From Candidatus Saccharimonadota bacterium (GTDB lineage: Bacteria; Bacillota_I; Bacilli_A; Mycoplasmatales; Hepatoplasmataceae): a DNA stretch of 32,000 bases. The translations under genes and the position numbers were made by a program. This document shows, piece after piece, positions 20,494-23,635 of the stretch (within the stretch, counting starts at the first letter, position 1; each line of letters begins with the position of its first letter). Location: the NCBI GenBank assembly GCA_027925225.1, contig AP027131.1:480001-512000 (forward strand). Reading direction: 5' to 3'. The notes beneath the pieces are model-generated. The model had not been told where the DNA came from, ran no database searches, and worked only from the letters and a program-made list of their open reading frames with translations.

Positions 20494-21705
20494 ATGTACT
20501 TAAATAAAAGTCAAAAAACAGAAGAAAAAATATCAATTCCTATTGATAAAGAAAAGCATTTACTAAATGTATATAATATACACATTTTAGATTTAAAATT
20601 TAATCCTTTCAATACAAGAATTTTTGATTTAATTTCTTCAAATGAAAAATTTAGAAAAATGTCTGAAAAAGAATTAAAAGATTCATTTGATGTACAAAAA
20701 TTTATTTTTGAAGAATTAAAAAAAGATCATGAAAACAAAAAAAATAAAGAATTAAAAGAATCTATTAAAAATCATGGTGTTGTAAAACCTTTAATATCCT
20801 TAAGTGATGGATTATTGCTTTCAGGCAATAATAGATTATCTTTATTAAGAACAATGTCAAAAAAATATGAATATGTTAGAGTCGCAATTTATGAAGAAAA
20901 TTTAACAAAAAATCAAATTATTAAAAATGAACTAATGATACAAAATGAATTTGATATTAAATTAGATTATGAAAATATGTCAAAAGTAATAAGAATTCTA
21001 GATTTAAAAAAGAAAGGTATTTCTGATGATGAAATATCAAAAATGACTGGATTTGTTGTAAAACAAAATGAAAAAATAGGAGAATTGTATACTGAATTTT
21101 TATTTTATGCTGGAGTTCCAGAAAGATATGATTATTACAGAAATTTTAAAAATACATATTCAATGTTAGACTCGTTAAGTAATACTTTAGAAAAAAAAAC
21201 TGGTATTAATATTTCAAAGAAAATTAAATTAAAAATAACTTATTTTAATTTAATATTAACAACAAATTTTCCAGTTCAAAAAATTAGAGATCATATAAAT
21301 AAAATAATGACAGTAAAACCATATAAAAAACAAAATGAAATTTTTGAAAATTTTATAGAAAAAATAAATGCAGAAGTAGAAGAACCTTTAAATAAAATTA
21401 GAGAAATTAATTTTAATGATTCAGAGCATATAAAAGATTATTTAAAAAATGCCGAAACACAAAGTATAAAAGAGGAAAAAGAGGAAATTATTAAGGAAAT
21501 TATTGAAGAGAATAAAGAAGAGATAGAAATTATAAAAAATGAAAAAAAAAATACATTAGAAGATCTAAAAAATGAATTAGAAAAAAACAGCAAAAAGATA
21601 AAAAATATTCTTTCTCAAATTAAAATTAATAAATATGAAAATAATGAAGAAGTGCAAGAAATAATATTAGAAATTGGGGATTTTTTAAATAATTATGGAA
21701 AATAG
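20494..21705 (+). CDS. ParB/Srx-fold N-terminal domain plus HTH protein with a Glu/Lys-rich coiled-coil tail (403 aa)
   Basis: The architecture is ParB-like. The N-terminal domain carries ..ILDLKFNPFNTR.. and ..LKESIKNHGVVKPLISLSDGLLLSGNNRLSLL.. (cf. L-x-x-SI-x-x-x-G-x-x-x-P-x-x-V...G-x-x-R of ParB N-terminal domains; the usual GERRxRA arginine patch is degenerate). A helix-turn-helix-like segment follows (LKKKGISDDEISKMTGFVVKQNEKIGELY), then a low-complexity tail (EEKEEIIKEIIEENKEEIEIIKNEKK..). The ORF is intact under both code 11 and code 4. Confidence 0.55.
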   Translation: MYLNKSQKTEEKISIPIDKEKHLLNVYNIHILDLKFNPFNTRIFDLISSNEKFRKMSEKELKDSFDVQKFIFEELKKDHENKKNKELKESIKNHGVVKPLISLSDGLLLSGNNRLSLLRTMSKKYEYVRVAIYEENLTKNQIIKNELMIQNEFDIKLDYENMSKVIRILDLKKKGISDDEISKMTGFVVKQNEKIGELYTEFLFYAGVPERYDYYRNFKNTYSMLDSLSNTLEKKTGINISKKIKLKITYFNLILTTNFPVQKIRDHINKIMTVKPYKKQNEIFENFIEKINAEVEEPLNKIREINFNDSEHIKDYLKNAETQSIKEEKEEIIKEIIEENKEEIEIIKNEKKNTLEDLKNELEKNSKKIKNILSQIKINKYENNEEVQEIILEIGDFLNNYGK

Positions 21706-23635
21706 AGAAATAATAACAATAATAAATAACAAGAAAAATAAATTATTAATAAATTTTAATGAATTTACTTCAGAACAATTATTTTATTTAAGTGCAGAAG
21801 AAATAATTAATTTAAATAATAAAGATGAAAAAAATAGTTATTTAATATGAATCAATACAAATGAGTTAAATAATTTATTAAATTTTTTGGAAAAAAATAA
21901 ATCTTTTTATAAAAAAAAATTTGTAAAAGAAATAAAAGAATTTTTATTTAATGATGAAAATATATCAAAATACGAAGAAGCGAAGAAAATTAAAAATGAA
22001 TTATCAAATAAAAAAATAATAGATAAAAATACTGATGAAAAAATTTTAAACAGGTATGAAGATTTTAAAAAAAATTTAAAAGAAAAACTTAAAAAATTTA
22101 TTTTTAATGAAGAAAATGAAAAAAATACCGAAAAACAAATGCAAAATGTTTTTCAATCTACAATTTTAAAAAATTCAGCAAATTTTTCTGAACCAGGATC
22201 GGGAAAAACATTAATGTCTATAATGACACATCTTGAAAGAGAAAGACAATTTAAAAAAAAATTAAAAATGATTATTATTTGTCCGATAGTTGCTTTCGAT
22301 GTTTGAAAAAGTGAAATTCTGAATTTTACAAATTTAGAATATAATGATATTCATATTTATGATGAAAATTATAAGGAAGAAAATGAGACAGATTATATAG
22401 ATGACATTAAATATTCAAAAGTAATAATATTAAATTATGAAAAAATGAAACAATTTTCTAATAATAAAACAAGAAAAGAAAATTTATTTTCAATTGAAAG
22501 TCATTTAATAATTGATGAAATTCATAGAATTAAAAATCCGAATGGAAAAACATCAGATATTATTAGAAAATTAGTTGAAACAGAAAATATAAAATACACA
22601 ACAATATTAACCGGTACTCCATCATCTAATAATATTTATGAATTAATTAATATTTTAAACATTGCTTGAAAAAAAAATATTCCAAATCTTCCAAATACAT
22701 TAATAGATGAAATGAATAGAATTTTTACAAATATAAAAAAAAATGAAGATTTAACAAACGAAGATAAAAATTTAATAAATAAATTTAATAATATAATTAA
22801 TCCTATTTATATTTTATTAAAGAAAAAGGAAGATTTTAATATTTTAAATGCAAAAGACTTATTTAATAAACCAATAACTGTTAAACCAACGAATGAACAA
22901 CTTGAAAAAGATGAAATTTTATATAACTCTCTTATGAATCAAACACATATATTTAAAAATAATAAAAATAAAAATAAAAAAGAAAATCTTGAAAAAATTT
23001 TTAGAATTTTAGGAAGTTTAAGAAAAAATGCGTCTGGAGGATTTGAAGAAAATTTAAATGAAGAAAAAGTAAATAAAATTTATAATCTTGTTTCTAATAT
23101 TTTAAAAAATGATAATGAAAAAATTATTATTTGATTTGAATTTAAAGAACCAATGGATTATTTTAAAAAATTTCTTAAAGAGAAAAACATTGATTCTGAA
23201 ATAATTCATGGTGATATAGATGTAATAGAAAGACGTAATATTTTAAACAATTTTAGAGATCCAAATAAATTTAAAATATTAATAACAAATGCTGCAACCA
23301 TAGGTGAATCTATTTCATTACATAATATTGTTAAAAATGCAATATTTGCTGAAATGACAACTTCTTATTTTAGATGAGTTCAAGCAAAAGATAGAATACA
23401 TAGAGTTGGAATAAAAGATGGATCAAAAGTTACTTATTATTATTTAAAAAATGAAAAATTAAATTCAGATAGAATTGTTTGAGATAATCTTGCTCATAAA
23501 GAAAAAATGAAAAAATTACTTTTTGATAACAAAAACTTAATTAATCCTGATTTTATAAAAATTAATGAAGATAATATAGAAAGCAGTTTTAAAACAAGCG
23601 AAGATAATGAAGATATTTTTATTTTGAAAAAATAA
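21695..23635 (+). CDS. SNF2-family (Swi2/Snf2, DEAD-like superfamily 2) helicase/translocase, 646 aa
   Basis: Five track fragments (21887, 22445, 22712, 23153...) share one frame and are joined only by TGA codons. Motifs: I SEPGSGKT, Ia IIICP, II LIIDEIHRIKN, III ILTGTPSSNN, IV IIIWFEF, V NAATIGESISLH, VI WVQAKDRIHRVG. The first ATG (21695) opens 2 codons after an in-frame TAA and overlaps the upstream gene by 11 nt (ATGGAAAATAG). The N-terminal 170 aa or so have no motif I recognise. Confidence 0.85.

Follow-up and report, generated by a model that had tools for sequence, protein, structure and literature searches.

Among the anti-phage systems described to date, AbiR of the Lactococcus lactis plasmid pKR223 is a three-gene system, and its primary reports (Twomey 2000; Yang 2006) are summarised in a 2026 review of lactococcal Abi systems (PMC13064643). 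AbiRa is a sigma70-like protein of about 820 amino acids (aa), AbiRb is ParB-like with 5K5D as its best match in the PDB, and AbiRc combines an N-terminal domain like that of an ATP-dependent restriction endonuclease with a Snf2-family ATPase (PMC13064643). The three genes are interleaved with the LlaKR2I restriction-modification (R-M) system, whose methylase AbiR needs and without which it is toxic; AbiR reduces phage DNA replication by a mechanism that is unknown (PMC13064643). A second system built around such a motor is Hma, in which HmaA, a Swi2/Snf2 helicase fused to a PD-(D/E)xK nickase of the NOV_C/DUF3883 type, defends against phage T4 (PMC11232893). Here we describe a ParB-like gene and an overlapping SNF2-family ATPase gene in Candidatus Hepatoplasma vulgare, an isopod symbiont with a 662-kb genome. 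The pair lies in a stretch of 32,000 nucleotides (nt) of contig AP027131.1 (assembly GCA_027925225.1, positions 480,001 to 512,000 of the forward strand), hereafter called the window and numbered from its first letter.

We consider, with a probability of roughly 0.6, that the pair is the Hepatoplasma copy of a widespread and mobile core of a ParB-fold protein and an SNF2 ATPase, which normally provides the motor and the sensor of a methylation-linked, restriction-like anti-phage system of the AbiR kind. An earlier note on this DNA had placed the two genes in the sphere of defence and conflict, and this is borne out by relatives that reside inside R-M operons, defence islands, plasmids and prophage-like contigs. 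The same note had taken the pair for a module unlike any described system, which does not hold: AbiR has been described as a methylase-dependent combination of a ParB-like protein, a Snf2-like protein and AbiRa, and plasmids of Enterococcus carry the three-gene arrangement. Neither is the system made of just these two genes, as in nearly all relatives a methyltransferase stands with them, together with one or two nucleases; the Hepatoplasma pair, being on its own, is exceptional and may be what reduction has left. The locus is thus a real defence-type module of a known but poorly understood kind, and not an undescribed system.

The window has a GC content of ~20% and was read with genetic code 4, in which TGA encodes tryptophan. 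When open reading frames (ORFs) are called with table 11 the second gene falls into fragments, whereas under code 4 both are whole, and the two genes of 403 and 646 codons reported to overlap by 11 nt are found exactly as claimed. The ParB-like gene (AbiRb-like) occupies 20494..21705 on the plus strand and is an exact match to HPAVJP_4230, an identical 403-aa protein on record for H. vulgare as "hypothetical protein HPAVJP_4230". The SNF2-family ATPase gene (AbiRc-like) follows at 21695..23635 on the same strand and contains six TGA tryptophan codons, and an identical 646-aa protein is recorded for this organism as "DNA helicase". The overlap ATGGAAAATAG spans 21695..21705 (+), with the SNF2 start codon lying within the last codons of the ParB-like gene. 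Chance cannot account for two open frames of such length in DNA of 20% GC when each of them has hundreds of homologues.

The ParB-like family has no name, and its extent was established by an exhaustive HMMER search with the conserved N-terminal 290 residues of the H. vulgare protein. This search returned 603 cluster representatives, with 121 at E≤1e-10 and lengths of 380-470 aa almost throughout; a word-indexed homologue search reached just two relatives even with the profile included, and HMMER was needed. Scanning one genome per species confirmed at least 538 loci, distributed over Bacillota, Bacteroidota, Proteobacteria, Spirochaetota, Saccharibacteria, Caldisericota and Acidobacteriota and including one archaeon, Methanolobus. 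The archaeal pair, on the chromosome of Methanolobus sp. ZRKC3 (L068), is 42% identical to bacterial members, which points to inter-domain transfer. A gene of the same SNF2 family stands immediately downstream of the ParB-like gene at all 77 testable loci, separated by -38 to +30 nt, and the Mollicute-type relatives L004, L126, L127 and L130 show the same arrangement. An identical 11-nt overlap occurs in L004, and overlaps of 11 nt are also present at both junctions on an L. lactis plasmid (L132). The adjacency of the two genes is thus strict and the 11-nt overlap recurs, and the suggestion that they form a translationally coupled, fixed unit stands. The family is also present on 69 plasmids and 32 IMG/VR contigs, and most of the latter that offer enough room contain the full cassette. 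A Mollicute-type profile gave no match among viral contigs or those of JGI metagenomes. Damaged copies are seen as well: at L011 (3767-5001) the ParB-like gene is split into parts of 260 and 128 aa, and many Enterococcus faecalis plasmids have the sigma-like (AbiRa-like) gene cut to its first 126 codons, which are signs of frequent inactivation.

The genes that travel with the core were counted by neighbour clustering over 78 loci. A C5 DNA methyltransferase (MTase) belongs to the same operon at 71 of the 78, a gene for a NOV_C protein of the PD-(D/E)xK type lies directly 3' of the SNF2 gene at 72, a BanI/DpnII-like type II restriction endonuclease (REase)-like gene is found directly upstream at 36, and a Vsr gene at 18. 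The usual cassette in relatives accordingly reads C5-MTase (often with Vsr), BanI/DpnII-like REase, ParB-like, SNF2 and NOV_C; this five-gene cassette goes without a name in the sources searched, and its NOV_C partner matches PD-T4-1 and PDC-S36 in PADLOC. Other loci are wired differently. A C5-MTase and a MutH/Sau3AI-like gene are combined with the pair and an HNH gene in L130, and also in L005 and L011, whereas the L. lactis conjugative plasmid pIBB109_AgSa_3 (L132, 2792-10806) carries type III Mod, Res, ParB-like and SNF2 genes in one operon with 11-nt overlaps. In addition, Enterococcus plasmid records show the ParB-like gene beside a type III restriction endonuclease. A type I HsdR and a Dam-like MTase accompany the pair in L126, GmrSD in L004, and an AlwI REase and a D12 MTase accompany the ParB-like gene in L136. 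Neighbours in defence islands include Hachiman, AspBHI/Mrr, a Schlafen-like (SLFN-like) helicase, integrases and ImmA/XRE pairs. A core that stays constant while its methylase and nuclease are swapped marks a defence system that is modular, mobile and restriction-like.

The architecture described for AbiR is found exactly on more than 50 Enterococcus plasmids, where a sigma-factor-like gene of 864 aa is followed by a 405-aa ParB-like gene and a 620-aa DEAD/DEAH helicase gene with a 4-nt overlap. The sigma-like protein matches Sigma70_r4 at 3e-8, and the other two match the hidden Markov models (HMMs) of the two families at 5.6e-91 and 8.5e-106, respectively. Compared directly with the window proteins they give 5e-8 (ParB-like) and 3.5e-40 (helicase, 27% identity). 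The H. vulgare pair likewise has what marks the AbiR type, a ParB-fold gene directly followed by the gene of a Snf2-family ATPase to which it is coupled. LlaKR2I belongs to the Sau3AI type and has an m5C methylase; the MutH/Sau3AI-like and C5-MTase contexts of the relatives would agree with this. Taken together, the structural description in the review, the gene architecture and the genomic context make it probable that the ParB-like and SNF2 families correspond to AbiRb and AbiRc.

Sequence profiles barely reach the ParB-like protein. Pfam ParB_N matches it at E=0.061 with 13.8 bits, below the cut-off of 26.3, the PHROG entry "ParB-like partition protein" gives a sub-threshold E=0.008, and scans with NCBIfam and PADLOC returned no match. 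The family profile run against PDB sequences reached only helix-turn-helix (HTH) segments, with ParB chains merely at E ~0.4. The fold is far more telling. Built on an alignment of 63 members, an AlphaFold model reaches a predicted local distance difference test score (pLDDT) of 88 and a predicted template modelling score (pTM) of 0.77, and the best 16 PDB matches found for it by Foldseek all belong to the ParB family, with probabilities of 0.80-1.00 (at least 0.99 in 14 of the 16). They include Noc, pNOB8 ParB (5K5D), the ParB proteins of Myxococcus and Caulobacter, PadC, KorB and Spo0J, and the aligned regions include the N-domain as well as the HTH domain. In BFVD, every viral structural neighbour that has a name is ParB/Sulfiredoxin or DdrB-like, and the Pfam model ddrB-ParB (PF18763) matches 8 of the 63 family members (best 7.6e-5), the H. 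vulgare protein not being among them. Because of these fold matches, viral neighbours and ddrB-ParB matches the protein belongs to the ParB/sulfiredoxin (Srx) superfamily; the assignment holds at superfamily level, and the protein is not a partition ParB. The ParB-like organisation seen in the earlier note is thus clear at the level of family and fold. The protein begins with a beta-hairpin, continues with the ParB/Srx N-domain and then the HTH/helical domain, and ends in a long C-terminal tail of helices.

Conservation within the 63-member alignment is concentrated in a few motifs. In H. vulgare numbering R42, N112, R114, E146, Q150 and Y159 are invariant and L34, N37, N40, G111 and R265 nearly so, and the H. 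vulgare protein keeps every family-invariant residue. The first motif, F36-N-P-F-N-T-R42 (20599..20619, +), holds the invariant R42 together with N37 and N40, and the second, S110-G-N-N-R114 (20821..20835, +; family consensus DGNRR), holds N112 and R114. The residues E146, Q150 and Y159 belong to a stretch with the family consensus "LExxxQxGxDxKxDY" (20929..20970, +). Judged by motif order rather than by formal alignment, the patterns "(F/Y)NxxNxR", "GNxR" and "LExxxQ" would be the counterparts of the three ParB nucleotide-pocket motifs. The F36-R42 motif would take the place of the ParB "NPxQPR", and SGNNR that of GERR (box II), with an asparagine where the catalytic glutamate would stand; E146, Q150 and Y159 are likely equivalent to box III of the pocket. 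The canonical GERRxRA patch is absent, as the earlier note had remarked, and SGNNR is found in H. vulgare. The HTH region covers about residues 159-205 (20968..21108, +) according to the model, the family profile and Foldseek, with model helices at 159-173, 178-185 and 189-205. The C-terminal tail, residues 277-402 (21322..21699, +), is helical and coiled-coil-like in the model; it is of low complexity, rich in K, E and N, and modelled with lower confidence past residue 350.

The 646-aa protein is, on its sequence, unambiguously an SNF2-family ATPase. It matches PF00176 at 9.7e-18 (64.7 bits, cut-off 24.9; residues 166-445), Helicase_C PF00271 at 3.9e-12 (46.8 bits, cut-off 23.5; residues 458-572) and its own family HMM at E=1.6e-207. 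The helicase core, delimited by Pfam and a 76-sequence family alignment, spans 22136..23554 (+). It contains Q148, motif I (P167-GSGKT172), motif II (D274-EIH277), motif III (T306-GTP309) and motif VI (Q563-AKDRIHRVG572), and all motif columns that are conserved in at least 90% of the alignment are retained, in agreement with the claim of an SNF2 protein with intact motifs. The region in front of the core, residues 1-147 (21695..22135, +), is variable in the family alignment and is modelled by AlphaFold2 (AF2) with a pLDDT of only 52. Since it has no conserved residues, and in H. vulgare no histidine, this N-terminus is predicted not to be an active nuclease.

Around the pair the window is mostly a housekeeping region. 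The divergent uvrC gene (18836-20410, -) lies 83 nt upstream of the ParB-like gene, and downstream of the SNF2 gene there follow a 151-aa gene (23804-24259, +), two tandem PnuC-like genes, a gene of the metallo-beta-lactamase fold, uvrA (27283-30108, -; 3.6 kb downstream of the pair) and a KAP-family NTPase gene. Other genes encode NADH oxidase, thiamin pyrophosphokinase, ackA, pta, pyruvate dehydrogenase (PDH) proteins, LplA and TrmB. Chromosomal core genes stand on both sides of the pair, and the window has no element borders, integrase or phage genes around it and no tRNA. Scans for promoters and terminators are uninformative at such AT content: they gave 39 promoter-like sites where 44 are expected, and no terminator. 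The 151-aa gene gives a marginal match to a TenpIN toxin (E=0.056) and shows by eye a MazF/PemK-like "WRPCIV" stretch. In the spacer in front of it, a near-perfect palindrome (23682-23706), which is kept in a sister genome, precedes a pair of 19-nt direct repeats at 23713-23731 and 23780-23798. As a third component of the pair, or as a degenerate NOV_C, this gene was rejected: it has no HMM match, is unrelated to the genes that follow SNF2 at other loci and, being 83% identical in the sister, behaves like a core gene. Three PnuC-like paralogues of the nicotinamide mononucleotide transporter family (24374-25213 and 25365-26204 in tandem, and 7530-8321) are an unusual redundancy for a 662-kb genome. 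The KAP-family P-loop NTPase gene, which adjoins uvrA, has a long coiled-coil tail and runs off the window end (30245-32000); it has no PADLOC match and could be a further accessory or conflict gene. The 16S rRNA gene at 3585-5106 (-) is complete and has neither tRNA nor 23S rRNA alongside it within the window, which suggests an unlinked rRNA operon.

A comparison with the syntenic contig of a sister Hepatoplasma (L001) tells how the module has evolved. There the ParB-like gene also stands beside uvrC and is followed by a conserved spacer and the same 151-aa gene, but SNF2 is cleanly missing. The sister has, inserted between its NADH oxidase and uvrC genes, a C5 DNA methyltransferase and an opposite-strand 277-aa ORF (6224-8291), possibly a type II R-M pair, and both are absent from the window. 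The ParB-like proteins of the two genomes share 46% identity, compared with 69-87% for the flanking core genes, a pace typical of conflict genes. This difference and the lack of SNF2 in the sister show that the module is accessory, fast-evolving and variably retained. Both H. vulgare ORFs are intact over 1,049 codons, and the core is therefore predicted to be probably still active, as a stripped, minimal variant of the AbiR-like kind without methylase or nuclease nearby.

How such a core might work can be sketched from its parts, and the clamp with a translocase that the earlier note proposed is a plausible form of it. The ParB-like protein would keep the arginine/asparagine nucleotide pocket, with asparagine for the catalytic glutamate, and would bind DNA through its HTH. 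Gated by a nucleoside triphosphate (NTP), it may clamp or mark DNA that is without host methylation or has been nicked or cut by a partner nuclease. Its helical tail would then recruit or activate the SNF2 motor, for which the variable N-terminal region of the helicase is a likely docking site, and the motor would translocate along the DNA and pass it to the associated nuclease, while the cognate methylase would protect host DNA. In H. vulgare the core would have to rely on partners whose genes lie elsewhere in the 662-kb genome, or else do its work without cleavage, as it might by stalling the replication of incoming DNA.

Several observations weigh against placing the H. vulgare pair in a methylation-linked system of the AbiR kind. 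The partners are missing from its surroundings: a search of the window with HMMs for NOV_C (from 72 sequences), MTase (71) and REase-like (36) proteins gives no match, partner-family HMMs find no Vsr gene there, no AbiRa-like (sigma-like) ORF is present in it, and its sole methyltransferase is TrmB-like (PF02390), not a DNA MTase. As the sister has no SNF2 gene, the pair can be dispensed with, and it may be in decay. In two Mollicute-type subclades a different partner, which is not SNF2, stands with the ParB-like gene. In their loci L133 (3689-6243) and L136 (3739-6079) this partner, of 470 aa and 373 aa respectively, overlaps the ParB-like gene by 11-16 nt; the two are 37% identical to each other without a Pfam match, and as AbiRa-like proteins they were rejected, with an hhalign probability of 0.2%. 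The PADLOC v2 collection has no model for the ParB-like protein, and family helicases match its generic SNF2 components alone, DpdE and ZorD being joint best at ~3e-20; the H. vulgare helicase gives a marginal DrmD match (E=0.017), and its neighbours nothing. The equation with AbiR itself rests on the description in the review and on matching architecture and context, and no public source was found that names the ParB-like/SNF2 relatives AbiR. Finally, the NTP gating, the sensing of methylation and the recruitment of the motor are all steps that we infer.

Some of these points can be read in another way, namely that the H. vulgare pair is a functionless relic, orphaned during genome reduction from a once complete R-M-linked system and now being lost. 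The window without MTase, nuclease or AbiRa-like gene, the clean absence of SNF2 at the syntenic site of the sister next to a conserved downstream spacer, and the split or truncated copies elsewhere (L011; the Enterococcus sigma-like genes) would all agree with it, and the 46% identity of the ParB-like protein beside neighbours at 69-87% could mean relaxed selection. However, 1,049 codons have stayed open in a code 4 genome of 20% GC in which stops arise easily, all invariant residues of the ParB-like family and all helicase motifs are kept, and so is the 11-nt coupling overlap. On balance we regard decay to a relic as unlikely, though a serious possibility.

A bolder extension treats the core as a universal plug-in for R-M systems of types I, II, III and IV, whose nucleotide-gated ParB clamp would load on DNA that has been recognised, nicked or cut by the R-M system; we hold it to be unlikely. 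If it were true, the SNF2 motor would make one restriction event lead on to processive destruction or to an arrest of replication. Such a core would represent a new class of R-M amplifier and would explain the methylase dependence of AbiR, and the Hepatoplasma copy would show it persisting and acting without a dedicated nuclease.

The pair could also serve the mobile element rather than the host, as a phage or plasmid module for anti-restriction or replication of the DarB/DdrB type. The SNF2 protein does match phrog_62, a long phage "DNA helicase" profile, at 1e-46; ddrB-ParB is matched within the ParB-like family, as noted above; in the polyvalent proteins of phages and plasmids, SNF2 and DdrB-ParB domains act as hubs (PMC5512222); and the family is found on plasmids and viral contigs. 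Yet the genes that share operons with it are restriction nucleases, Vsr and C5 methylases instead of virion or transfer genes, AbiR is reported to protect its host against phage and to be toxic without the methylase (PMC13064643), and the window pair sits among chromosomal core genes with no sign of an element around it, all of which leaves this explanation with little probability. A role in nucleotide excision repair, with a RapA/Mfd-like SNF2 motor and a DNA-binding partner as a repair or transcription accessory, is suggested by the uvrC and uvrA genes on either side and by the adjoining uvrC in the sister; we give it very little credence, as none of more than 100 other loci examined has a uvr linkage and R-M and defence genes stand there instead, the distribution is patchy and mobile, and SNF2 is missing from the sister. 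A housekeeping partition or nucleoid-occlusion ParB (ParABS or Noc-like), for which the ParB and Noc structures among the best fold matches would speak, has hardly any likelihood and is rejected here, in line with the doubt voiced in the earlier note: an ORF survey of the 32 kb shows no parA, a parS search of the window gives one 3-mismatch match inside uvrA against 0.6 expected, GNNR replaces GERR, the Pfam ParB_N match is below threshold, the patchy and mobile relatives are obligately paired with SNF2 and R-M genes, and divergence is far faster than that of core genes.

The family-level picture is worth more than this one copy from Hepatoplasma. A very widespread and strictly coupled ParB-like/Snf2 core, with its at least 538 loci and no PADLOC v2 model, is wired to R-M systems of all types with swappable nucleases. 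It offers a concrete comparative framework for asking how a motor of the chromatin-remodeller type works together with the ParB nucleotide-switch fold in immunity. As for Hepatoplasma itself, a symbiont genome of 662 kb has kept an accessory, fast-evolving conflict module, whose retention varies between sister lineages.

The pair can also be set against known systems. The ParB-CTPase clamps (ParB, Noc, KorB and PadC) have the same N-domain and HTH fold and arginine-containing pocket motifs that are retained here, but they carry GERR where this family has GNxR, and the H. vulgare protein has no ParA, parS or partition context and is partnered by SNF2. DISARM DrmD and Zorya ZorD are also SNF2 translocases in defence, with weak to moderate PADLOC matches, although the window is without DrmA/B/C and ZorA/B/C, and both systems are without a ParB-like partner. 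Dpd unites a ParB-fold NTPase (DpdB) and an SNF2-type helicase (DpdE) in one DNA-modification-based defence system; in contrast, the window holds neither DpdA/TGT nor other dpd genes, the ParB-like protein gives no PADLOC match to DpdB, and DpdB serves base insertion and not restriction. HmaA resembles the family cassette in joining an SNF2 motor, a NOV_C nuclease and a methyltransferase in anti-phage defence, and the L. lactis plasmid helicase matches it weakly (8e-10); it is, however, a single fusion of ~1150 aa without a ParB-like partner, whereas the nuclease of the family is a separate gene, absent in the window. The five-gene cassette of the relatives draws its ParB-like and SNF2 genes from the two families of the window, likewise tightly coupled and in this order, but its methylase, REase-like gene and NOV_C nuclease have no counterpart here. 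AbiR differs from the window by its sigma70-like AbiRa gene and its DNA methylase. It nevertheless shares with the H. vulgare locus a ParB-like protein followed by a Snf2 ATPase with an extra N-terminal domain, and with the relatives an R-M context such as that of the Sau3AI/MutH-like and C5-MTase loci, and 5K5D, the best PDB match of AbiRb, is also among the best fold matches of the H. vulgare model.

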